Source of the DNA: Patescibacteria group bacterium
GTDB taxonomy: Bacteria > Patescibacteriota > Patescibacteriia > Patescibacteriales > UBA12465
Assembly (NCBI GenBank): GCA_041661685.1
Contig: JBAZTY010000002.1
Coordinates: 93,126 to 157,125, forward strand
Direction of reading: 5' to 3'
DNA: 64,000 nt
Below the pieces are notes generated by a model, which was given only the letters and a program-made list of their open reading frames with translations, was not told the origin of the DNA and ran no database searches. Made by a program: the position numbers and the translations under genes. This document shows, piece after piece, positions 9,834 to 64,000 of the stretch. Every line of letters starts with the position of its first letter. Position 1 is the stretch's first letter.

Positions 9834-12827
9834 ATGCCTTCGGAATCCTTAAAACAATTGAATAAGGCGCAGCAGACGGCCGTTATCCATGATCAAGGGC
9901 CACTCTTGATAGTGGCTGGCGCCGGCACTGGCAAGACTACGGTTCTAATAAATCGCTTGGCCCATCTGATTATGGATAAGAAGATCAAGACTGATGAGAT
10001 ATTGCTCCTAACTTTTACGGAGAAAGCGGCCGGAGAATTGGAAGATAGGGCGGAGAATATCCTGCCTTACGGTTATGTTGATTTATGGATTAATACTTTT
10101 CACGGTTTCTGCGAGCGGATACTCCGGGAATTCGGCCTGGATATCGGACTTAATCCCGGGTTCAAGCTGCTCAGCTCGACTGATCAATGGGTGCTCATCA
10201 AGAAGAATCTGGATCGCTTCAACCTGGATTATTATCGGCCGCTCGGCAATCCGACTAAATTCATTTCCGAATTATTACGGCATTTCTCCCGGCTTAAGGA
10301 TGAAAATATTTCTCCGGCAGAATATTTAAAATACTCAGAAGAATTAGAGGCGGGCCTGCCTGGAGATGAAGACGAGGAAGTTCGGGAAAAAGACCGGATC
10401 AAGGAGCTCGCCGGCGCTTACCATACCTATAATCAATTATTGTTAGAGAATAATTTCTTGGATTTCGGCGATCTGATCGTCTATGCCTTGAAATTATTCA
10501 GAGAACGGAAGAATATCCTGAAGTTTTATCGTGATAAGTTCAAGTATGTCATGGTCGATGAATTTCAGGACACTAATTGGGCGCAGTATGAATTAGTGAA
10601 GATGCTGGCCGCGCCGAAGAACAATCTTGTCGTCGTCGGCGATGATGACCAGGCTATCTATAAATTCCGCGGCGCGTCATTATCCAATATCATGCAGTTC
10701 AAGGATGATTATCCTAAAGCCGCAGAGATCGTCTTGATAGAAAATTATCGTTCGCGCCAAGCTATTCTCGACCATGCTTATCAATTCATCCAGAATAATA
10801 ATCCGAATCGGTTAGAGACTAGATTGAAATTAGATAAGCAGCTCGTCGCTAAAGGAGAGATCAATAAGAAGAAGTTATTAGGAGGCCCAGTCAAATTTTT
10901 TAATTTTGAGTCGGCTACCGATGAGGTGTCGTATGTGGCGCAAAAGATGAAAGAACTTCATGAGATTGGTGCGGGCGAGACTAATTGGTCTGATTTTGCG
11001 ATTCTTGTGCGCGCGAATGATACGGCCGAGGCCTATGTCAAAGAATTAACTCGCCAGAATATCCCGAATCAGTTCATGTCTTGGCGCGGGCTCTATTATA
11101 AGCCGATCATCCTCGACATCCTGGCTTTTTTTCGGCTCTTAGACAATTATCATGAATCAGCAGCTCTCTTTCGCGTCTTGAATATGGAAATCTTCAAGGT
11201 GGCGCATCTTGACCTTGTTAATATAAATAAGATGGCGGCGCGCAAGGTCTGGTCTTTGTACGAAGCCTTGAAGAATATTAATGCTATTCCTAGCGTCAGC
11301 CCGGAGAGCGTCAAGAGTATTAATAAGCTGCTCGCGCTCATTGAAGAGTTTTCCCAGATGGCCGCTACGGCCAAGCCGACTAAGATATTCTTGCGCTTCG
11401 CTTATGATTCCGGGTTATTGGCGGATTTAGACCATGATCGAGATCTGGAATTATTCTCGTTTTTGAACCAGCTTTATCAGAAAATCAAGAAGATGGAGGA
11501 GACTGAGCCGGATCTGCGCTTGGGAGAATTTCTTGCCGCGATAAATTTGGAGCTTGATGCCGGCGAGACTGGATCATTGAAGCTTGATTTCGCCGATAGC
11601 GACGTGGTTAAGATCATGACCGTGCACGGCGCCAAAGGCTTGGAATTCAAATATGTCTTCATGGTCAATCTGGTCGATAAGAAATTCCCGACTATTTCCA
11701 GAAGCGAGAAGATTTCGATTCCAGACGCGCTAGTGAGGGAAAAATTGACGGATACCGCTGATGCGCATATAGAAGAAGAGCGCCGCTTGTTTTACGTGGC
11801 GGCGACGAGAGCTAAGGATGAACTATATCTGACTGGCGCCAAAGATTACGGCGGCGCGCGCGAGAAGAAGCCGTCCCGCTTCATTTCCGAGATGGGGTTG
11901 GCCAGCGAGATCGGGCCGGAATTATCTTTGAGCGAGAAGAATGAATTCTTGCGCGACCTGCATTACCTCAACGCTCGCGAATTGGCGACCGTCGAGAAGA
12001 GCGCGGCGGAAAAGTATCCGCTGCCGGATAAATTTTCTTTCTCGCAATTAGCGGCTTATTCGACCTGTCCACTGCAATATAAATACGCTTTCATCCTGAA
12101 AGTTCCGGCTTCGACCGATAAGGCCTCGCTCATCTTCGGGCGCGTCCTCCATAATACTTTATATAATTTCTTATTGCCGCTCTTAAGCGAACGGAAAGTA
12201 TTGCAAGGCGATCTGTTTTCCGGTCTAGAAACGTCCGCCGGCAAAGCGGCGAAGAAGAAAGCCGAGGATAATCTTTTGAGTGAAAAGAGACTAATGGAAT
12301 TATATGCGGAGTTCTGGCAGGCGGATGGTTATGCCTCCAAGGAAGAGCGAGAAAAATATAAGATCAAGGGCCGCGAGGCCTTGAAGAAGTTCTTAATCGC
12401 TTATAAATCGGACGCGGTTCACGAAATACTATTCCTGGAAAAGAAATTCTCTTTCAAGATCGGGCTAGACGTTATCAAGGGCGCGATTGATCGCGTCGAT
12501 AAGCTCAGCGACGGAACTTTGGAGATTGTCGACTATAAGACCGGCAAGAACAAAGAGAAACTGGAATTTAAAGATAAGCGCCAGTTGATCCTGTATCAGC
12601 TATTCTTGGAGGAATTCTTGGGCGTCAAAGTCAGCGCTCTCAGTTATTATTATCTAGAGAGCGGCGAGAAGAGATCGTTCGTCGCGTCTGAAAAAGATAT
12701 CACGAAAGTGCGCACGGAAATATTGGCAGAGATTGCGGCTATCAAAAAGCGCGATTTCACGCCGACGCCATCTTTGATGTGCCAGTTCTGCGATTTTAAT
12801 TCTATCTGCGAGTTTAGGGAAGTTTAA
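9834..12827 (+). CDS. UvrD/PcrA-type SF1 helicase fused to a C-terminal PD-(D/E)xK Fe-S nuclease (AddB/Cas4-like)
   Basis: Walker [46 protein letters not shown] and [11 protein letters not shown]. The C-terminus has CPLQYKY .. [17 protein letters not shown] .. [10 protein letters not shown] (four Cys plus D..D.K). Confidence 0.88.
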
Positions 12828-48391: not shown

Positions 48392-50272
48392 ATGCAGGAT
48401 ATTGCGGTCTTCGCTCAGACAACTTATCGCAACGAATTCAAAAGATTCGGAATTAAGACCGACGACCGCCGCCGGCATATGTATTTGATTGGGAAAACAG
48501 GCATGGGCAAATCCACTATCCTAGAAAATATGATTGTGGATGATATTCGTGCCGGGCATGGCGTTGCCGTTGTCGATCCGCATGGTGATCTGGCTGAAAA
48601 GATTATCGAGTTCATCCCTGAAGACCGGATCAAGGACGTCGTTTATTTTAATCCGTCGGATATAAATTTTCCGATTGCTTTTAACGTCGTGGAGCAAGTC
48701 GAGCCGCATCTGCGTCATCTCGTCGCTTCCGGTCTGATCGGCGTCTTCCAGAAATTATGGGCGGATTCTTGGGGCCCTCGTTTGGAATATATTTTGCGCA
48801 ACGCTATCTTGGCGATTCTGGATTTTCCCGGTTCGACGATTTTGGGCGTCGTGCGCATGCTGTCCGATAAGAATTACCGCAAGCGCGTCGTTGCTAACAT
48901 TAAAGACCCAGTGGTCAAGGCTTTTTGGGAGAAGGAATTTTCCGGTTATGCTGATAAGTTCGCTTCCGAGGCCGTTTCTCCTATTCAGAATAAGGTTGGT
49001 CAATTTTTATCCAGCTCTTTGATGAGAAATATTATTGGTCAGGTAAGGTCATCCATTGATATCCGCGAAATCATGGATAATGGCAAGATCTTGATTATGA
49101 ATTTATCTAAGGGCCGCATCGGCGAAGATAATTCGGCCTTGTTAGGCGCGATGATGATTACGAAGATTCAATTAGCGGCCATGAGCCGCGTTGATATTCC
49201 GGAAAAAGAACGCCGTGATTTTTTCTTATACATTGACGAATTTCAGAATTTTTCAACCGACAGTTTCGCTAATATCTTATCGGAAGCCCGTAAATATCGC
49301 TTGAGTTTGATTTTAGCGCATCAGTATATCGAACAACTGAGCGAGAAAGTTAAGCCGGCTGTTTTCGGCAATGTCGGCACGATGGTTGTTTTTCGGGTCG
49401 GCGCGGCTGACGCTGAAGAGCTGGTTAAAGAATTCACTCCGACTTTTACCGAAGAAGATATTGTTAATCTGCCTAAGTATGAGATGTATCTGAAATTGAT
49501 GATCGACGGCATTTCTTCTTCGCCTTTTTCGGCCAAAGGCTTGCCGCCGCTCACAGAAGCGGAAAAGACAGGCAACACTCAGAAGGTGATTGATTATTCT
49601 CGCGAGCATTATGCTTCCGACAGGGAATCGGTCGAAGAAAAGATTATGAGCTGGCATGAGAATACCGGAGAAGAAACTGCGCCTACTCCAGTTCTAGCTT
49701 CGACGTCGGCTTATCGCGCATCAAACCCGGTCGCTGCGCCAGATCATTCTTTTCCTGCTCCGGCCGCCGTTCCAGTTCCGCGTCCCGCGCAATCTTTCCA
49801 ACCTTCGGCTCCTGCTCCAGTTTCGCCAGCTTCGCCCCGTCCAGCCTTGAAGAAAGCGACTGTCGGCGGCTATACGGCTATCTGTAATTCTTGCGGCCAA
49901 GAAACAACAACTGTCTTTGAACCGGATGGAGTCCGCCCGGTCTATTGCCGCGATTGTCTCAGTAAAAAAAAAGAAGAGAAACGCCAGGATCTAGAAAAGC
50001 GTCAATTAGCCAAGATAGAAGAAAGGCGCCGCGTCGATGAGGTAGATAAGAAGAAAGAGAACATCCCGACCTTGTCTCTCAGCGATTTGACAAAAGTAGC
50101 GCCGCGCGATTTTCGCGGCCGTGAAATAAAAGCTAGGCCGGCCGCGGCGACAGCCCCAGCTCCAGCCAAAAAAGAACAAAAGTCTTCCGACTGGAAAGAT
50201 ATCCCTTTCCCCGAACTTCCTTATAAGGAGATGGAATTGAAAGAAGACGAAGACATCACTCTTAAGAATTGA
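48392..50272 (+). CDS. VirD4/TraG/TraD-like (T4SS coupling-protein-type) ATPase with C-terminal CxxC..CxxC zinc ribbon
   Basis: Walker A LIGKTGMGKSTI, Walker B FFLYIDEFQNF, and LILAHQYIEQL. A Pro/Ala-rich linker leads to CNSCGQETTTVFEPDGVRPVYCRDC. Confidence 0.75.
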   Translation: MQDIAVFAQTTYRNEFKRFGIKTDDRRRHMYLIGKTGMGKSTILENMIVDDIRAGHGVAVVDPHGDLAEKIIEFIPEDRIKDVVYFNPSDINFPIAFNVVEQVEPHLRHLVASGLIGVFQKLWADSWGPRLEYILRNAILAILDFPGSTILGVVRMLSDKNYRKRVVANIKDPVVKAFWEKEFSGYADKFASEAVSPIQNKVGQFLSSSLMRNIIGQVRSSIDIREIMDNGKILIMNLSKGRIGEDNSALLGAMMITKIQLAAMSRVDIPEKERRDFFLYIDEFQNFSTDSFANILSEARKYRLSLILAHQYIEQLSEKVKPAVFGNVGTMVVFRVGAADAEELVKEFTPTFTEEDIVNLPKYEMYLKLMIDGISSSPFSAKGLPPLTEAEKTGNTQKVIDYSREHYASDRESVEEKIMSWHENTGEETAPTPVLASTSAYRASNPVAAPDHSFPAPAAVPVPRPAQSFQPSAPAPVSPASPRPALKKATVGGYTAICNSCGQETTTVFEPDGVRPVYCRDCLSKKKEEKRQDLEKRQLAKIEERRRVDEVDKKKENIPTLSLSDLTKVAPRDFRGREIKARPAAATAPAPAKKEQKSSDWKDIPFPELPYKEMELKEDEDITLKN

Positions 50273-56423: not shown

Positions 56424-56497
56424 TGCGGGATCGTCTAACGGTAGGACAGCGGCCTTTGAAGCCGTTTATCCTGGTTCGAATCCAGGTCCCGCAGCCA
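56424..56497 (+). tRNA. tRNA-Gln (anticodon TTG), CCA encoded
   Basis: TGCGGGA-TC-GTCT-AACGGTA-GGAC-A-GCGGC-CTTTGAA-GCCGT-TTAT-CCTGG-TTCGAAT-CCAGG-TCCCGCA-G-CCA. Confidence 0.92.
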
Positions 56498-56499
56498 AG

Positions 56500-56529
56500 T
56501 TGAGCTAGTACGAGGACTATTAGTATAAT
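56500..56529 (+). promoter_or_regulatory. possible promoter of the first island gene
   Basis: TTGAGC (56500-56505), 18-nt spacer, TATAAT (56524-56529), starting 3 nt after the tRNA. Confidence 0.35.
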
Positions 56530-56562
56530 ATATATAATTATATTGATTTATAAAAATACATT

Positions 56563-57213
56563 ATGAATACGATTATTAATTTTTTTGATTCAAATTTTTT
56601 TGTAGGGTTAGTTACGCTTTTAGCCGGTGCCGTCGCCTTCTTCTTATATTGGAAACAAAAAAATGATTTAAAGAAGGATGCTGCCAATATTGTTCTTTTA
56701 GAAATTCAAAATGCTGAGAGGATATTGGGGCAAGTAGGAGAAAATGTGAGGGCCGGCACCTTACCTAATAAATTTCTCTTGCCAAATGATAGCTGGAGTA
56801 AGTATAAGTATCTGTTTGTTAGATATTTTGATAGAGATGAATGGGATATTATTACAGAATTTTATAATAACTGTAAATTATATGATGAGGCAGTAACATA
56901 TAACGGATCTTTATTTCAAAAGAACGAAGAGCAAATAAGAGTTAATATGCTTCGTGTGCCAGCTGGTTACATTAAAGATTATGTAGACGGAGTTAGAGCT
57001 GAAGATGAGCCAGGGGAAAGAGTTAGACTAGAAGAATTTTTTACAAAATCTACTTTATTCCAGAATACATATCTTTCAAGAGCTAGCTTATTTTTGTATA
57101 ACCCCCAGAAGCCGTTAAATGATGCAAGAGTTGCTTTTGATAACATAAATAGCAGTATATCTCAGGCCTCAATAGGCTCTAAGCTAAAGAAACTTGCAGG
57201 CCTGAAAGCCTAG
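56563..57213 (+). CDS. hypothetical N-terminally anchored protein (first island gene)
   Basis: 216 aa with one TM helix (FFVGLVTLLAGAVAFFLYW), AT-rich codons and no known motif. Confidence 0.6.
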   Translation: MNTIINFFDSNFFVGLVTLLAGAVAFFLYWKQKNDLKKDAANIVLLEIQNAERILGQVGENVRAGTLPNKFLLPNDSWSKYKYLFVRYFDRDEWDIITEFYNNCKLYDEAVTYNGSLFQKNEEQIRVNMLRVPAGYIKDYVDGVRAEDEPGERVRLEEFFTKSTLFQNTYLSRASLFLYNPQKPLNDARVAFDNINSSISQASIGSKLKKLAGLKA

Positions 57214-57349
57214 TTTACTGATATATATTAATAGCGCTCGAAAAGCGTCGTAATAGTAATATAAAATCGCCACAGAGGCCTTACAGGATTTGACCAATTA
57301 TAGTTTTAGTTCAAGTTGTCCGGTCAAGTTGAACTTAGTATCATGGTTC

Positions 57350-57358
57350 GGGGGGGGG
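57350..57358 (+). repeat. G9 homopolymer upstream of the HerA-like gene
   Basis: tcatggttcGGGGGGGGGtag: nine G, ending 30 nt before the ATG at 57389. Confidence 0.95.
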
Positions 57359-57388
57359 TAGTTTTGTTTATTAACTAAATAATTCTAT

Positions 57389-59512
57389 ATGCCAGATTTA
57401 ATTTCAAAAGCATCCGATAGACTCGTAGAGACGGAGTTGAGCAAAGATCTGCAAACTGCAGCAAAAATTATTTCTGATTTAATTGAACCGGAAGCTTATG
57501 TTGGTGAAGTCTATTCCTTGGGATATGAAGAGGCGCTTGTTCAGATACATGATTTTCATAGGCAAAAAGTTGGCGGGATCCCGGCCTTATCATTTTTAAT
57601 CGCAACGAGGATTAATTCTGGTTCGGCGATCGATGTCAAAGAAGAAGATACCTCAGTTATCTTATTACGCGTATTGGATCAGGCAAATTTGCCCAATGCA
57701 GATATGGCTTTGCGTGTTAGAGTAGAAAATGCACAACGTGTTAGTGGTGAACTCAATAAAACATGGGATGATAAAGATGTTATGGATTCGACTACACACA
57801 ATATTTTAAGTTATGCTGGTATTCGGTGTAGAGTTTTGGGTACGTTTTATGTTAATAATTTAACACAAGATAAGGAGAAGCCATCCTATGCCCTTATGTT
57901 CGGGTCAGACCTTAGTAATTATTATCCTAATCGTGGGTTAAAAGTGTTTAAACCTCGCGGTGACGCCTTGGAAAAAATAGTAAATTATCGCGCTCCTAAG
58001 CAAGGAAAAGGCGATGAAGACATCCTGGTTAAAGTTGGAGAAGTTAGATATGCATCTACTAATCGTCAATATCAGCAAATTTCTGGTGTTTCTGTATCAA
58101 TTACCCCCACAGATTTACTTGGGCAAAAAACTGCACTTTTCGGGATGACAAGAACTGGAAAATCAAATACTACAAAAATTATTTTAAAATCTATTTTTGA
58201 ACTTCGTTGGCATAAAAAACCTAACTCCATTGGTCAAGTAGTTTTTGACCCTAACGGAGAGTATGCGAATGAGAATGTCCAAGATCAAGATAGCGAAAAC
58301 AATCCAAATGCTATAAAGAATGTTTGGATGTCAGGGCCAAAAGGATCTCAGAAAGAATTAAAGGGTGATGTTGTCACTTATGGTATAACTCTTCATCCAA
58401 ATGATCCCGATAGGCGGCTAATGAAATTAAATTTTTATTTAGATGAGAATATACAAATTGGTAAGCAAATTATTAATACCGCCCTACTTAGCGATAATGC
58501 TAAGTATATAGCAAATTTTAGAGATGTAATGTTAGACCCGCCAGCAGAGGGGAGCGATTTTGGTGATATTGTTCGTTATCGACGCCGGATTCTTTGTTAT
58601 AGGGCGTTATTACACAAAGCTGGTTTTGAAGTTCCTGCGACAGTTACTCCAAAAACGGAAAAGTTGTTTAGTCAAGATTTTTTGAAGAGTATGCGCGGCG
58701 AAATTGACAACGAAGAAGAACCATCAGCGTACAAAAGGTTCGCCGATATTTTTGAAAAACAAAACCCGAGCTGGGGTGAATTATCTCAAGCAATGCAAGG
58801 ATTGAATGATTACATCGAAGACAAAAAATCTGGGTTTCAAGAATTTGATACTAAGTATTTGGCTAAAAATCCTTCAGAAGAATCATGGGCCGATGAAGAG
58901 TTAAGAAAAATATTAGGGATGTTTAACTACGCCAATGGCTCTCGTCTTATTGGAAGAGTTAAGGAGCAGCATAGCCATAGTTCAAGCCAAGATTATGCAG
59001 ACGAAATCTATGAAGAACTCGAGAAAGGGAAGCTGGTTATTATAGATCAATCAAGTGGTGAGCAAGAGCTAAATAAAGTTTCGGCTGATCGTGTCATGAA
59101 AAAAATATTTGAAAGAAACCGAGCGGTATTTCGTAAAGGTGGTTTGCCTAAAGACATATTAATATACGTTGAAGAGGCTCATAATATTCTTCCATCCGCA
59201 GAAGAAAAAGAACTTTCTGATATCTGGATAAAAACAGCGAAGGAAGGAGCTAAATACCATCTTGGTCTTATTTATATTACGCAAGAAGTCAGCTCCATCC
59301 AAAAAAATATCCTCCGTAATACAGCGAATTGGTTTATAGGTCATCTTAATAATACCGATGAAACAAAAGAATTAAGAAAATTTTATGATTTTGATGACTT
59401 TGAACATAGCATTTTAAGAGCTCAAGATAAGGGATTTTTAAGAATAAAAACTCTCTCAAACCCCTATGTTGTGCCTGCTCAAATTGAGAAATTTACTGTC
59501 GAAAAATTATAA
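57389..59512 (+). CDS. HerA-like (DUF87/FtsK-HerA clade) ATPase
   Basis: N-terminal barrel-like region, Walker [20 protein letters not shown], Walker B-like [13 protein letters not shown], and [31 protein letters not shown]. Confidence 0.8.
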
Positions 59513-59514
59513 AT

Positions 59515-60861
59515 ATGCCATACGAAGGAGAATTTGCTCATTATAAGCCATTGAATCGTATTGTCGAGTCAGAGTGTGTAAAAGGACTACTTAGAAGTGT
59601 TCGAATTTGTGATTCATCCTCAAAAAAAGTAGTTACACTCCTACCAAAATTTATTTCCGATAAAGTAATAAATTTTCCTGATTTTGTTATAGCAATTGAT
59701 GGAAGTCAAACAGAAGTTCCAATTGAAAATGGTTACCCTGGCGCGATGATTGGCTACCTTACTACGGCGAGTGTTCTATTGGATTTGAAAAGAATGAATG
59801 AGCTAGATCAACACAGGCCAGTCGATCCTGTTGAGTTTCGTAAGACCGAGGAAACTTCTGCGCTTGATGCAGCTTTTCCTGGCAGTAATGTAGTTGTTAG
59901 ATCTCATACATCCGCGAAAGATTCATTTAGAGAATCGCTATATGAAAACTTTAAGAATATTATAGTAGACGATGACGGAGTTAGTCTATTGGATACATAC
60001 GAAAAACTTCTTGCGTTAAAGCCAGTAGAACATTCTCAATCTTGTCCATATGAAGCCGATGGGTGCCAAGAACGACTTAATGTATTAGCCGGCGTTACTA
60101 CCTGTTCTTTCACTAAAAAACCTATTTATTCGACTGATGCTTTGAGAGTTTATGAACGATTTAGGGATATAGGTTTAAATGGTGAATCATTGGGAGAAAT
60201 AATGCAGGTATGGGAGAGGGTTCTATTAGTACATCTTTTACGTGGTTTCGAAAGAAGAAATCTATTACACAAGATAAATCAAATTGCTTTTATAATTGAT
60301 GGGCCACTTGCTGTTTTCGGACACCCAGCCTGGCTTAGCAATGCTATAAATAAAGAATTAAAAAGGATTAACAAAATTGTTAAAGAAAAAACCGATACAG
60401 ATTTAATAATATTGGGCATAGAGAAAAGCGGGGAGTTTGTAGAGCATTTTAATACGGTAGATAAATTAGAAACATCAGGACTTAATTTATTTTTACCGGG
60501 AACGTATTCCTTATTGACTGATAAATACATAAAAGAGCGTATTATTTTTTCTAAAAGCGATAAACGATATGGGCTTGATACGTACTTTGGAAGAAAATTT
60601 TTTTATAAAACAAAAAATGGTTATAGAATTGTCGCGAGTATCGCCTTCTTATCTGAAGATCAAGACACATTAGATTCTGATGATATAAGTTTATATCCTA
60701 GATTTGGCACAATTTGTAATATGCTCAATATGTTGGTTTCTTCGCAATATCCGAATTCTTTATCACCGATTATTGCAGCTCATGCTCAGGCGGCGATTCC
60801 TCTACGCTTAGGAGGGAAAGTGCTCGAGCAGCTTGCTAAGGCCTTAATGAGAAAAAATTAA
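59515..60861 (+). CDS. NurA-like nuclease
   Basis: The NurA motif order is present: FVIAIDGSQ (DGS Asp), AFIIDGPLAVFG, LIILGIEKSGEF, and the C-terminal SPIIAAHAQAAIP. The start is 2 nt after the herA-like stop. Confidence 0.7.
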   Translation: MPYEGEFAHYKPLNRIVESECVKGLLRSVRICDSSSKKVVTLLPKFISDKVINFPDFVIAIDGSQTEVPIENGYPGAMIGYLTTASVLLDLKRMNELDQHRPVDPVEFRKTEETSALDAAFPGSNVVVRSHTSAKDSFRESLYENFKNIIVDDDGVSLLDTYEKLLALKPVEHSQSCPYEADGCQERLNVLAGVTTCSFTKKPIYSTDALRVYERFRDIGLNGESLGEIMQVWERVLLVHLLRGFERRNLLHKINQIAFIIDGPLAVFGHPAWLSNAINKELKRINKIVKEKTDTDLIILGIEKSGEFVEHFNTVDKLETSGLNLFLPGTYSLLTDKYIKERIIFSKSDKRYGLDTYFGRKFFYKTKNGYRIVASIAFLSEDQDTLDSDDISLYPRFGTICNMLNMLVSSQYPNSLSPIIAAHAQAAIPLRLGGKVLEQLAKALMRKN

Positions 60862-60868
60862 TATTATT

Positions 60869-61984
60869 ATGGACGGAAAATATTCTAATGCAATAAACCG
60901 ATGGGAGGGTGTAGGACCATATTATGCGATGTTTCCAGCATTATTTGCTAGTAACGTTATAAAAAAATATACTAAATCAGGAGATGTCGTGTTGGATCCT
61001 TTTATGGGTAGAGGCACTTCTGTTTTTGCAGCAACTACGAATGGTCGCGTTGGTATTGGAATGGAAATTAATCCGGTTGGATGGGTTTATGCAAAAACAA
61101 AATTGTCACCCGCCCCAAAGGAAAAAGTAATAAAACGCCTCTGTTTTCTTGATAGTGTTGCTTATCGTTATAAAAACAAGGCAAAGTTGTTGCCCATATT
61201 TTTTCGTTATTGTTACAGTGATAAAGTTGTTTGTTTTTTGTTAGCGGCCAGAGCTGAATTAAAGTGGAAAACCAACCAATCAGATGCAACTTTGATGGCG
61301 TTGATTCTTGTAAGCTTACACGGTAAATATGGCAACGCATTATCGAATCAGATGCGACAGACAAAATCAATGTCTCCTAAGTACTCTATTAATTGGTGGA
61401 AAGAAAGAAAATTATTGCCCCCCCAGATTGATCCAGTAGATTTTTTAAAAAAACGAATTGAGTGGAGATATAAAAATGGAGTTCCGCCGGTACATCAAAA
61501 TTTTTTATATCTTGGCGACAGTTCTCTATTACTTAATAAAGCCAGTAAACAAATAATTGATAAAAAATATAAGCGACCTAAATTACTTTTTACATCCCCT
61601 CCTTACTTAGGAATAACAAACTATCACTATGATCAGTGGCTACGATTATGGATGCTCGGATATGCCGCAGAACCCAAGATATTAAAAGATAAGTATCGAA
61701 GAAAATTTGATAATCTGGAAGAGTATACTAATTTATTGGAAAAAGTATTTCAGAGATCCGCAAAGATAATGCATCCCGATGCAACTATATATGTGAGAAC
61801 TGATTACAGAAAAGAAACTTATCAAATAACTAAAGATATTTTACAGAAGACTTTCCCTCGAAAAAAACTCATCGAGAGAGTTTGTATGTTTCATAAGCCA
61901 ACCCAGACTAACTTATTTAGAAAAAAATCTTCAAAAAAATATAAAGAGAATGGTGGTGAGGTTGATCTAATTTTGATTCCATAG
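60869..61984 (+). CDS. DNA methyltransferase (N4-C/N6-A type), motif I N-terminal, SPPY catalytic motif C-terminal
   Basis: The AdoMet motif VVLDPFMGRGTSVFAA lies near aa 40-55. The catalytic motif LLFTSPPYLGITNY lies near aa 240. The start is 7 nt after the nurA-like stop. Confidence 0.8.
   Translation: MDGKYSNAINRWEGVGPYYAMFPALFASNVIKKYTKSGDVVLDPFMGRGTSVFAATTNGRVGIGMEINPVGWVYAKTKLSPAPKEKVIKRLCFLDSVAYRYKNKAKLLPIFFRYCYSDKVVCFLLAARAELKWKTNQSDATLMALILVSLHGKYGNALSNQMRQTKSMSPKYSINWWKERKLLPPQIDPVDFLKKRIEWRYKNGVPPVHQNFLYLGDSSLLLNKASKQIIDKKYKRPKLLFTSPPYLGITNYHYDQWLRLWMLGYAAEPKILKDKYRRKFDNLEEYTNLLEKVFQRSAKIMHPDATIYVRTDYRKETYQITKDILQKTFPRKKLIERVCMFHKPTQTNLFRKKSSKKYKENGGEVDLILIP
61418..61424 (+). repeat. 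C7 homopolymer inside the methyltransferase ORF
   Basis: ttgCCCCCCCag encodes LPPQ. It is unusual in an otherwise AT-rich gene. Confidence 0.9.
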
Positions 61985-61985
61985 C

Positions 61986-63347
61986 TTATATCACATTTGA
62001 TTTAGAAAAGGTTCCGTCTTTAGGGATAATCATTTTTTTGACTAAAATAATTTTATTTTTTAGACATCCCAACAGTTCTCTTTTTTCCTTTGTTTCTCCG
62101 TCTCTCAAGATAAATTTTGCGTAGTTTTTTACGTCAATTTCTTTGATTGTTATTTGTTCCGTGGTTCCTGAAATAATTCTTTTAAATTTTTTAAATCTTT
62201 CAATTTCGGTTGTAATTTTTTCTCTAATTCCAATCTCATCGAGATCAATTTTGTCCATTAGAGTCTCGAATTGCTTAATAAGTGTTTCTTCGTCTATATA
62301 TCCTGCTTTACAGTTTTTATCTTTGAATTTAGTACACCCATAATAAACGTGGCGATGAATATCGCCATTTTTTAATTTCTTAAACTTTTCTTCGGCACTT
62401 ATTCCCGATCCGCATAGTCCGCAAGTCATGAGTTTAGTGAAAGCGAATTCCTTGTTTTCAGTTCTTGTTATATTATTTTTTACCTGTTTCTGCGCGGCAT
62501 CAAATAGCTCTTTAGTAATAATCGGTTCATGTCTTCCGGTATACCAATTGCCACTCTTTTTAGGGTATTCATAGACACCATAATAGAAGGAATTTTGTAG
62601 TATTAGGTAGACATTACTTAAAGTCAGGTTTTTGTTACCAAGGGTGCTTTTAAAGTTCAGGTCAAATTTTAACCAATTATATATTTTTCGACCACTCCAT
62701 TTTTCATAAGCCACCTTTTCAAATATTTGTTTGATAATTGGTGCTCGATCGGGATCGATCATGACATAGCCTTTTCTATCCACTCTTTTTTCGTTTAAAT
62801 ATCCGGTCGGAGCCGGAGCCGGCCATAGACCCATTTCACAGCGCATGCGTAGCCCTCTTTTAACATTAACGCTTTTATTATCATTCTCCAGTTTTGCCTG
62901 AGAGCATAAGATCATCAGAAGAAATTTTTCATTCGGTGAGTTTGTAAAGCGTTGTCCGTATGTCCTGATTTCCAATAGTAGTTTTTGATCCATTAAATCT
63001 ACGAGCGATCCCAGGTCTCCGGCATTCCTAGAAAGCCGATCGGGTGCCCAGGTGAGTATCCCAGTATATCTGCCACTCCTGATGTCATTAATAATCTCAT
63101 TAAAGACTGGGCGCTGGCTTGAATCCTTGGCCGAATGCGATTCTCTTCGGATATCGACAATATCAAGCTCGTCACGTTCGGCAATCTGCAACATCTCTTT
63201 AACCTGTGAATCTATTGATAGTGCCTGTCGCTCATCCTGTTCGCTAGACTTCCTGGCATATAAGCAATATTTAGCCTTTATAGGGACTGTAATAGCCCTC
63301 TGAGCCTCTATGGCCCCGATTGGTTGATGATTTTCCATATAACCCAT
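61986..63347 (-). CDS. large serine recombinase
   Basis: Resolvase catalytic domain (YCLYARKSSEQDERQALSIDSQ .. WAPDRLSRN), a recombinase domain, a zinc ribbon (CGLCGSGISAEE .. YYGCTKFKDKNC) and a C-terminal coiled coil. Convergent with the MTase, 1 nt apart. Confidence 0.88.
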   Translation of the reverse strand: MGYMENHQPIGAIEAQRAITVPIKAKYCLYARKSSEQDERQALSIDSQVKEMLQIAERDELDIVDIRRESHSAKDSSQRPVFNEIINDIRSGRYTGILTWAPDRLSRNAGDLGSLVDLMDQKLLLEIRTYGQRFTNSPNEKFLLMILCSQAKLENDNKSVNVKRGLRMRCEMGLWPAPAPTGYLNEKRVDRKGYVMIDPDRAPIIKQIFEKVAYEKWSGRKIYNWLKFDLNFKSTLGNKNLTLSNVYLILQNSFYYGVYEYPKKSGNWYTGRHEPIITKELFDAAQKQVKNNITRTENKEFAFTKLMTCGLCGSGISAEEKFKKLKNGDIHRHVYYGCTKFKDKNCKAGYIDEETLIKQFETLMDKIDLDEIGIREKITTEIERFKKFKRIISGTTEQITIKEIDVKNYAKFILRDGETKEKRELLGCLKNKIILVKKMIIPKDGTFSKSNVI

Positions 63348-63443
63348 TAATGACGCAATCCAATGGGGAAGTCCAGGTCCTATTGTCGGTAAACTGTTGG
63401 TAACTTTTCTTTACTTTTTGGCCATTTTAGGCTATATTTGAAG

Positions 63444-63574
63444 TGCAAAACTACATTTTAATATCGTGAGCTGATGCGCCATTATTTGGCTATTTTGCTT
63501 ATTTATGCACAGGAACGGGCACGCCGACCAGCATAAGTAAGCATCCTCACGGATACCGAAAATGTAGTTTTGCA
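63444..63574 (+). other. 131-nt long imperfect hairpin / inverted-repeat element (candidate structured RNA or recombinase-associated site)
   Basis: Perfect 16-bp outer stem tgcaaaactacatttt (63444-63459) / aaaatgtagttttgca (63559-63574). Inner helices are tatcgtgag/ctcacg(g)ata, gatgc/gcatc and gcttatttatgc/gcataagtaagc. The single wobble is U-G only on the + strand. Confidence 0.5.
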
Positions 63575-63645
63575 ACTAGGTCGGGTGTCCGTTTTTGTTT
63601 TAAATCGGACATCAGACATTCATAATTTATTAATTAAATAACCTT

Positions 63646-64000
63646 ATGAAAAAATGTCCCTTTTGTGCCGAAGAAATCCAGGATGAAGCAGTCAAATGCA
63701 GACATTGCTCATCCGATCTATTGTTTGGTGAAAACGTGGAGAATTCGATTAAATCAGTAGCTGGCGATGCGAAGAGTGGAAAAGTTAATACGTTAATCTG
63801 CAAGCAATGTGGTGGTGATATGGTAAAAAGAAGAGTCTTCGGCAGTATTACTTCTTCCTGTGTTCTGTTTGTCGTCGGCTTCATCGTTTCCATTTTTAAC
63901 GGAGTTATAGGCGGATTGATTTTGGTTATCAGTTTAATTATGGGTGTTGTCAAAGGATTTTCTTCCAAAAGATACTGGATCTGCAATAAGTGCAGCTATA
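63646..64000 (+). CDS. zinc-ribbon membrane protein (3' end outside window; not in the ORF track)
   Basis: Translation from the ATG at 63646 gives [34 protein letters not shown]..(TM helices [27 protein letters not shown])..WICNKCSY. It stays open to the window edge. Confidence 0.65.

Follow-up and report, generated by a model that had tools for sequence, protein, structure and literature searches.

The stretch of DNA considered here, 64,000 nucleotides from a Patescibacteria group bacterium (contig JBAZTY010000002.1 of assembly GCA_041661685.1, positions 93,126 to 157,125; hereafter the window), carries an AT-rich block of ~7.07 kb at positions 56498-63572, directly after a tRNA-Gln gene. 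We interpret this block, with a probability of roughly 0.72, as a reduced serine-recombinase island which is integrated at the tRNA gene beside an older module (the island is referred to as module A, its neighbour as module B) and which carries a defence-like cassette of three genes encoding a HerA-type ATPase, a NurA-type nuclease, and a DNA methyltransferase (the triad). The island is of a known general kind, and a tRNA gene is a usual place to find one; interest lies in the cassette and the element family, both of which appear uncharacterised and widespread. Feature coordinates are collected in Table 1.

Comparisons of composition, synteny, and gene content show the block to be foreign, that is, horizontally acquired, because its base and codon usage shift, synteny ends at the tRNA, and its genes are absent from the closest relatives. 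Its GC content is 0.360, compared with 0.458 for the backbone (standard deviation 0.016, minimum 0.419, in 198 windows of 7.1 kb), which places the island ~6 standard deviations under the backbone mean, and the change occurs right at the 3' end of the tRNA. GC content at third codon positions (GC3) is 0.29, 0.28, 0.25, 0.28, and 0.35 in the five island genes, in gene order, and 0.57-0.58 in ftsE, ftsX, and an upstream peptidase gene, which served as the backbone comparison. An earlier reading of the same letters (the original prediction) had described the sequence as AT-richer from the CCA end of the tRNA onwards, with codon choice moving from GC-ending to AT-ending. Both descriptions held when computed (the latter as GC3 of 0.25-0.35 versus ~0.57), and its five open reading frames (ORFs) and their domain calls were reproduced by Pfam and the ORF list.

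The window is 100% identical to a 150-kb ENA contig (L002), and a scan of reference genomes for FtsX provided 80 loci for comparison, mostly from Candidatus Falkowbacteria and more distantly from Magasanikbacteria. DNA alignment to seven related Falkowbacteria ends at 56495-56498, the last bases of the tRNA (L004, L005, L007, L009, and L010 are among the relatives whose synteny stops there), and all five island genes are absent from the closest relatives (L004-L007, with FtsX 86-95% identical). An integrated element at this tRNA, as originally predicted, is thus borne out; of the two contrary outcomes named beforehand, an absent shift or the same block in all relatives, neither occurred. Where the site is empty, the tRNA ends ...CCCGCAGC-TA or -TG and is followed by a terminator hairpin. 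In the window, L007, L008, L011, L179, and L248 it reads ...GCAGC-CA followed by foreign sequence, and an encoded 3' CCA occurs in island-bearing relatives only. Because empty sites read TA or TG and occupied sites CA, the encoded CCA and everything beyond it can be attributed to the element.

Alignments of the same region indicate that DNA has been inserted repeatedly at the 3' end of tRNA-Gln, since the site is empty in L005, differently filled in L004, and followed here by ~11.2 kb of inserted DNA. In L005 a gene for an S24 peptidase lies ~75 bp after the tRNA, and its orthologue (92% identical) lies ~11.2 kb past the tRNA in this genome. The closest relative, L004, holds a different 6.1-kb insert at the same point, with a 1,686-aa ORF and yunG, and the terminator following the tRNA in L005 reappears in L004 beyond this insert. 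S24 genes also occur in the core of the element family described below, and assignment of the peptidase gene to the element was considered; against it, the gene is 92% identical and syntenic in L005 and lies outside the L004 insert. At the depth examined it behaves as backbone, an assignment we regard as tentative.

Other observations concern the same site. The contigs of ~20 of the 80 relatives stop within roughly 1.5 kb after ftsX, which suggests that strain-level variation at tRNA-Gln breaks the metagenome assemblies of this clade. In L033 a direct repeat of the tRNA 3' end (AATCCAGGTCTCGCAGCAC) lies beyond the terminator, ~100 nt after tRNA-Gln (~11160), such as another kind of element, probably one with a tyrosine integrase, leaves behind when it uses the same tRNA. 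In L007 a sibling-element arm (ATACATATTTCGTGTGGGTGACCGAC, 11087-11115) stands right after the CCA, and no recombinase gene was seen over the next 9.8 kb. The arm is succeeded directly by backbone genes (PAP2, acetyltransferase, cation ATPase), and the locus looks like the scar of a lost element. An 800-aa stretch of the 1,686-aa ORF of L004 (11123-16183) occurs at 70% identity in L017.

The large serine recombinase is likely the integrase of the island, and would integrate module A through a 2-bp crossover near the end of tRNA-Gln. It exceeds the cut-offs of PF00239, PF07508, and PF13408, contains the YARKSS nucleophile motif and DRLSR, and matches a PHROG integrase at 1e-62. Its homologues number at least 7,960 at E<=1e-100, the top ones being 71-78% identical and mostly from Patescibacteria; among NCBIfam models it comes closest to CcrB and XisF, in each case well short of the cut-off. 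A recombinase gene arranged tail-to-tail with the tRNA, together with an arm starting at the encoded CCA, is shared by the window with L008 (recombinase 57% identical, tRNA-Gln), L079/L082 (53%, tRNA-Gln), L179 (63%, tRNA-Gln), L248/L249 (75%, tRNA-Gln(CUG)), and L175 (62%, tRNA-Ser). Overall, recombinases 53-78% identical to it adjoin tRNA-Gln in this way in at least five other lineages, whose cargo differs. Two of these loci, L079 (8812-18488) and L082 (2937-12613), both from Magasanikbacteria, have at least 9.7 kb in common from tRNA-Gln on, including the recombinase and a core of TerL-like, TerS-like, and ParB-methyltransferase genes. This shared element is 99.9% identical and the backbones just 78%, a disparity of identities which shows a very recent transfer between species.

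The core usually lies upstream of the recombinase and co-oriented with it. It consists of a ParB/N6_N4 methylase, a ~140-aa helix-turn-helix/TerS-like protein, and a ~500-aa TerL-like protein which carries a Terminase_6C domain in L179. The order methyltransferase, TerS-like, TerL-like, recombinase was seen in at least 10 loci. Frequently a gene for an S24 repressor-like protein is read divergently from the core, and in most family members the recombinase is internal, the element running many kb past the recombinase start. Core-bearing loci (L179 7875-11071; L248 6678-9925; L250 3986-7140; L171, L174, and L177) have no evident capsid or tail genes nearby, and could be phage-satellite-like or minimal packaging elements of candidate phyla radiation bacteria.

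Elements whose recombinases are 57-77% identical to that of the window carry recognizable defence cargo: CBASS (CD-NTase and Cap15; L247, 5026-6903), Thoeris ThsB-TIR with Bsp6I restriction-modification and Vsr (L248, 582-6066), a methyltransferase and ResIII helicase (the tRNA side of L248), Shedu (SduA_C; L250, 811-3411), and SIR2-like, GmrSD, and BsoBI restriction-modification genes (L008, 12022-16389). Judged by this gene content, these loci look like a Patescibacteria-wide family of defence-shuttling elements with variable slots at fixed places, of which the window element is apparently a reduced derivative, its recombinase intact, its tRNA-side cargo slot filled, and its core lost. Because the core is absent, present mobility is uncertain.

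Three-domain large serine recombinases, an absence of long end repeats, and compositionally deviant accessory cargo are also found in the staphylococcal cassette chromosome mec (SCCmec, with CcrAB), in prophages of the phiC31/Bxb1 type, and in the XisF fdxN element. The present elements differ in their target, the 3' end of tRNA-Gln being more typical of tyrosine integrases, in their Patescibacteria hosts, and in the ParB-methylase/TerS-like/TerL-like core which the family normally has and which is missing here. In prophage hotspots of the P2/P4 type and in satellites resembling phage-inducible chromosomal islands, the integrative core is conserved and the defence systems in set positions are exchanged. 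The Patescibacteria family is comparable in its fixed defence slots and in its terminase-type genes without an evident structural module; however, those systems rely on a tyrosine integrase, and this family uses a serine integrase.

Turning to the cargo, neighbourhood comparison shows the triad to be an autonomous, mobile unit whose movement is not tied to the 216-aa protein or the recombinase. The NurA-like protein has homologues in many phyla, more than 2,000 in number and for the most part ~60% identical along their whole length. A NurA alignment was used to collect 80 metagenomic loci, in which triad order and strand are constant and the genes are separated by gaps of 10-35 bp (HerA and NurA adjoin in the window, with a 3-bp gap). 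HerA and the methyltransferase are each present in 78 of the 80, the rest being truncated contigs, and identities to the HerA, NurA, and methyltransferase of the window are ~63%, 60%, and 50%. Neither the 216-aa protein nor the recombinase accompanies the triad in any of these loci (0/80), and the flanks are unrelated, with no recurring neighbour; integrases, UvrD-like helicases, and GHKL ATPases are among them. The original prediction had the genes right and did not recognise HerA, NurA, and methyltransferase as one self-contained cassette, which this comparison made apparent. The closest triads occur on a chromosome without a recombinase (L178), on a short contig (L181), and in a sibling element (L179), where the triad has a serine recombinase (63% identical) on one side and the terminase core on the other. 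With identities down to 27-29%, the arrangement is also kept in a prophage of Vibrio (integrase, HerA, NurA-like, Type II methyltransferase) and on a haloarchaeal plasmid (DUF87, NurA-like, DNA methyltransferase). No triad was detected in IMG/VR viral contigs with the alignment patterns used, yet L179 and the Vibrio prophage show that it can be phage-borne.

Conservation of all catalytic motifs shows the triad to be enzymatically intact, as far as motifs allow this to be judged. The HerA Walker A motif GMTRTGKS and EEAH are kept in 59/59 family members, the NurA motifs DGS and DGPL in 82/83, with D62, E112, D262, and D355 invariant. In the methyltransferase, motif I (DPFMGRG, residue 43) precedes motif IV (SPPY, residue 243), and DPFxGRG followed by SPPY ~200 residues on is found in 69/69 methyltransferases; the protein matches the PADLOC model MTase_II at 5e-25. 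Methyltransferases with SPPY tend to act on N4 of cytosine more than on N6 of adenine, a hint that the product may be N4-methylcytosine.

We infer, by analogy, that the triad works as a restriction-modification-like defence system. Its methyltransferase is genetically coupled to the nuclease-ATPase pair, and such linkage of a methyltransferase with a nuclease is characteristic of restriction-modification. Among solved structures, the best sequence match of the HerA protein is TdpA (8wet, 4.4e-17), over residues 545-666 only (~120 aa, the C-terminal ATPase). Sequence and profile searches of the PDB with the NurA protein returned no match; the best fold match of its AlphaFold2 model (predicted local distance difference test score, pLDDT, 70; predicted template-modelling score 0.73) is chain G of TdpAB (8wfd; E 1.4e-4, probability 1.00, template-modelling scores 0.39-0.46), followed by archaeal NurA (3tai) and then TM1739 (1zup). 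TdpABC is presented as the third restriction-modification system to be based on phosphorothioate, with the modification made by one gene alone, tdpC (PMC12914056, citing An et al., Nat Chem Biol 2025). The triad resembles it in having three genes in the same order, for a HerA-type ATPase, a NurA-fold nuclease, and one modification enzyme. However, the third gene here encodes a PF01555 N4/N6 methyltransferase with SPPY and not the phosphorothioation enzyme TdpC, no TdpC-like gene was found among the island ORFs, and the mark to be sensed would be a methyl group in the groove and not a sulfur in the backbone. The proposed sequence of events is that the methyltransferase would mark host DNA, and that a HerA hexamer loaded with NurA would thread and degrade DNA without the mark, as TdpAB does with phosphorothioate-lacking DNA.

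Two further comparisons are informative. The closest parallel in print is the element ICEth1 of Thermus thermophilus HB27, located in a tRNA 3' end, one operon of which encodes Tth111II and a NurA-like nuclease together with TdtA, an ATPase of the HerA/FtsK kind, and a PF01555 methylase (PMC5365140). The likeness, a mobile element at a tRNA 3' end with an operon of NurA-like, HerA/FtsK ATPase, and PF01555 methylase genes, is one of domain types; the order there is NurA, ATPase, methylase, a type IIG restriction enzyme is added, and the integrase is an XerC-type tyrosine recombinase with 47-bp direct repeats. SIR2-HerA and DUF4297-HerA likewise couple a HerA-type hexameric ATPase to an effector, and the anti-phage HerA models of PADLOC and NCBIfam match partially, far under family cut-offs (38.9 bits for NCBIfam HerA_antiphage, against a cut-off of 800). 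Unlike the triad, those pairs lack a methyltransferase and NurA, and they work by abortive infection, with an NADase or a Cap4-like nuclease as effector. The literature searched yielded neither a description of a HerA-NurA-methyltransferase defence system nor an experiment linking the triad to phage defence. That the triad represents an unnamed and widespread restriction-modification class, present in bacteria, archaea, and prophages and built on a HerA-NurA machine which reads a base methyl mark (probably N4-methylcytosine) in place of a conventional restriction endonuclease, and that a Patescibacteria-wide family of terminase-bearing tRNA-Gln elements acts as defence carriers, is a tentative proposal which we rate somewhat short of even odds.

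Locating the right-hand end of the island is a less straightforward matter. The original prediction had the recombinase bound the island, and this is wrong: low GC (0.31-0.39) runs ~3.6 kb beyond the recombinase, past the window end, before returning to backbone level (L002 and L084, the latter a 16.9-kb Logan contig continuing the sequence past the window). Against L005, with its empty site, alignment picks up again only ~11.2 kb past the tRNA and not at the recombinase, the inserted DNA spanning 56498 to ~67,660 in window-equivalent coordinates; on the left, relatives lacking the insert define the end at 56495-56498. The earlier interpretation is partly supported, being largely right apart from the boundary at the recombinase. 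The ~3.6-kb extension holds five small AT-rich ORFs essentially without family matches, apart from a weak zinc-ribbon match and weak matches of a 161-aa ORF (L084 2994-3479, ~66566-67051) to terminase small-subunit PHROGs. Compared with the TerS-like protein in the core of sibling elements, this ORF has 29-35% identity and the opposite orientation. A 63%-identical homologue of the 288-aa protein of module B lies in L086 (101-2608), tail-to-tail with a truncated serine recombinase which is without its catalytic domain and adjoins an Eco57I-like methylase, and appears to mark another decayed element of similar kind.

Our explanation is that module B (63573 to ~67,170) would be the remnant of an earlier sibling element, beginning with its tRNA-proximal arm, and that module A would have inserted later, between this remnant and tRNA-Gln, giving a tandem or nested hotspot. 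The sequence CAACTAGGTCGGGTGTCCG, from 63573 on, agrees at 14/16 positions, with the same spacing, with the sequence following the CCA in L179 (…GCTAAGTCGGGTGACCG). The motif GGGTGACCG is common to the right junction, L007, and L008, and is otherwise nearly absent from the ~1.9 Mb of fetched loci; GTCGGGTG(A/T)CCG comes after the tRNA CCA in L179, L008, and L007. At the left junction, the arm motif ACGAGGA is common to L011 and L248, the recombinase of the latter being 75% identical. Both island ends contain CTAG, and joining them there produces CCA-N8-TA-G-GTCGGGTGTCCG, collinear with CCA-N8-TA-A-GTCGGGTGACCG of L179. Candidate crossover dinucleotides are CA (56496-56497 and 63573-63574) and the TA of CTAG (56506-56507 and 63577-63578). 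Under the CA model attB is reconstructed as ...GGTCCCGCAGC-CA-ACTAGGTCGGGTGTCCG and attP as ...AAAATGTAGTTTTG-CA-AGTTGAGCTAGTACGAGG; under the TA model they become ...GCAGCCAAGTTGAGC-TA-GGTCGGGTGTCCG and ...GTAGTTTTGCAAC-TA-GTACGAGGACTATTAG. No long direct repeats were found flanking the block, in agreement with the original prediction.

Assemblies of the region provide a second line of information on its ends. One Logan contig, L001 (7,136 bp), corresponds exactly to window positions 56466-63601, L084 and L085 both start at 63573, and L003 stops inside the tRNA at 56451; the region is split at the same place (63573-63601) in independent Logan assemblies from two samples. We regard these breaks as suggestive of excision or polymorphism. 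Reading the exact crossover from contig ends was tried and rejected, since the 29-nt overlaps and 1-13-nt offsets misfit a simple k=31 model and the ends are good to a few bases. A 9-bp match to the T-arm of the tRNA (TCCAGGTCC at 63371) was also rejected as an attR remnant: it falls in the leader block of the recombinase, which is internal in L179 and L248, the sequence following it cannot complete a tRNA, and ~4 such 9-mers are expected by chance.

Assigning the reading of a recombinase-borne island with a defence-like cassette a meaningful degree of confidence demands that a number of results weighing against it be considered together. With regard to mobility, no TerL-like or ParB-methyltransferase homologue was found in the window plus 12 kb beyond (76 kb), no empty-site allele or excised circle of the exact element was found, and a right-flank 30-mer scanned across Joint Genome Institute (JGI) metagenomes for an empty site gave zero matches. 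With regard to the junctions, the proposed attP half-sites have weak dyad symmetry (9/18 positions, by hand), the contig breaks lie 1-13 nt off the positions predicted by either crossover model, L001 is unbroken across the left point where an island-free allele should diverge, and the left contig break fits the tRNAs of co-occurring relatives better. With regard to function, the similarity to TdpA is confined to the ATPase region at the C-terminus, and that to TdpB, by fold, has low template-modelling scores and comes from a model with a pLDDT of 70. PADLOC returned partial matches only for HerA and none for the NurA protein, for whose family it has no model. The NurA-like nuclease and TdtA of ICEth1 are required for transjugation, that is, DNA donation, and not for defence (PMC5365140).

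The mobility results bear most directly on the possibility that the island, having been acquired by serine-recombinase integration, is now fixed and immobile and its recombinase gene a relic. In favour of such a fossil, the family core is missing, no empty-site allele was found in the same species by the JGI scan, and the same contig sequence appears in several datasets at 100% identity. Even so, the recombinase is full length, its catalytic motifs and conserved leader are intact, and the assemblies break at both ends in two samples, as presence/absence polymorphism would have them do. We consider an immobile relic unlikely, if the strongest of the alternatives.

A different division of the DNA, into a single composite element of ~11 kb, would make 56498 to ~67,660 one decayed family member in which the recombinase is central, as in L079/L082 and L248, and module B replaces the lost core. 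The sibling-type tRNA-proximal arm located exactly at 63573-63592, in what would be the interior of such an element, argues against this, as do the breaks at that arm in assemblies of two samples, the orientation of the TerS-like ORF, opposite to that of the canonical core, and the lack of module-B genes in ~20 recombinase relatives, the TerS-like and L086 cases being weak exceptions. What makes the composite worth weighing is that the majority of relatives have an internal recombinase, with many kb of the element beyond its start, that module B has the same GC content as module A, that the 161-aa ORF shows weak homology (29-35%) to the TerS-like protein of the core, and that the homologue of the 288-aa protein stands beside a truncated serine recombinase in L086. 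On balance, two modules account for the junction better, and we judge a single element rather improbable.

Concerning the cassette, the triad could be a DNA-processing or export module, as in ICEth1, or a module for end resection at double-strand breaks, and thus have no part in immunity. Canonical HerA-NurA pairs act in end resection, and NCBI labels the NurA homologues 'DNA double-strand break repair nuclease NurA'; the Thermus operon, with the same three domain types at a tRNA 3' end and a requirement in transjugation (PMC5365140), is a precedent for export. Against these roles, the methyltransferase is strictly coupled to the HerA-NurA pair, and repair would need neither a dedicated methylase nor frequent horizontal movement. 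The triad also occurs by the integrase in the accessory region of a prophage, and in slots which elsewhere hold defence systems, and the structures it resembles most are those of TdpA and TdpB, which act in defence. A restriction-modification-like role therefore remains our preference, and export or repair appears still less probable than the composite element. Finally, local constraint on native genes as the cause of the composition shift has a negligible chance of being correct, for although other 1-kb windows reach a GC content of 0.375, no 7.1-kb backbone window falls below 0.419, the genes are absent in relatives, synteny is broken at the tRNA, and triad homologues occur in unrelated phyla.

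Table 1. Features of the island and its junctions, in window coordinates.
Feature	Position	Strand	Basis or remark
tRNA-Gln(UUG; anticodon ttg), integration target	56424..56497	+	ARAGORN, Rfam
Left junction (attL): tRNA end and element arm CA-AGTTGAGCTAG-TACGAGGAC	56496..56520	+	synteny end
216-aa membrane-anchored protein, uncharacterised family	56563..57213	+	one N-terminal hydrophobic anchor
707-aa DUF87/HerA, HerA/FtsK-type ATPase (predicted hexameric translocase), triad gene 1	57389..59512	+	PF01935, 6.8e-13
448-aa NurA-type nuclease (RNase H-like fold), triad gene 2	59515..60861	+	PF09376, 1.1e-9
371-aa N6_N4_Mtase, predicted self-marking enzyme, triad gene 3	60869..61984	+	PF01555, 7.3e-19, permuted order
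453-aa large serine recombinase	61986..63347	-	Resolvase, Recombinase, Zn_ribbon_recom domains
Leader block (AAGTTACCAACAG ... CCTGGAC ... TGCGTCATTA-ATG)	63348..63402	-	conserved before recombinase start
Imperfect hairpin, ~131 nt	63444..63574		closed by a perfect 16-nt inverted repeat
Right junction of recombinase island, starting CAACTAGGTCGGGTGTCCG	63572..63592	+	arm like the tRNA-side arm of sibling elements
Start of module B: 123-aa zinc-ribbon membrane protein, crosses window end	63647..64000	+	GC 0.347; L002, L084 extend

Beyond the recombinase, positions 63348-63646 (299 nt) are non-coding and fold with z = -5.9 on the plus strand and -4.0 on the minus strand, 0/200 shuffles being as good, which agrees with the earlier description of ~300 highly structured nucleotides at this point. 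The hairpin arms (63444-63459 and 63559-63574) place its outer arm against the right junction, where it ends within two bases; its inner half is partly conserved in L008, in a partly similar left arm. No Rfam family matched the hairpin, even at E<=1, and it was rejected as a known RNA family. It was equally rejected as a dispersed repeat resembling a miniature inverted-repeat transposable element that would explain the assembly break, the arms being unique in the window and all loci; in viral contigs the arms gave 65 matches, single copies at chance level.

A block of ~65 nt before the recombinase start codon is conserved upstream of 11 related recombinase genes, with subfamily-specific changes. 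It was considered as attP or attR and rejected, being internal to the element in L179 and L248, and because of this internal position it is, by its conservation, better regarded as a leader or operator than as an attachment site. The 216-aa protein matched nothing in Pfam, PADLOC, NCBIfam, or PHROG. Its family comprises 483 cluster representatives at E<=1e-3, all ~200-250 aa in length, and weak homologues lie downstream of ftsX/tRNA-Gln in L011 (14929-15537) and L076 (3999-4277), in both cases with neither triad nor recombinase. The protein may be cargo of its own. In the backbone upstream of the island, window positions ~48392-50272 (L002 2950-4830) encode a 626-aa protein with TrwB/TraG-type coupling-protein and zinc-finger domains, which adjoins an RNase T-like gene and may belong to a system for the transfer or uptake of DNA.

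The genomes of Patescibacteria are tiny, and little is known of the biology of their mobile elements. The recombinases of this family, whose tRNA target is defined and conserved, could serve as tools for genome integration. If our reading of the triad is true, a HerA-NurA machine which reads methylation would add a mechanistically distinct class of restriction-modification, the methyl counterpart of TdpABC. If the reading of the element family is likewise true, a single recombinase family which targets tRNA-Gln and exchanges CBASS, Thoeris, Shedu, restriction-modification, and the triad at fixed slots would be a main route by which Patescibacteria exchange immunity.

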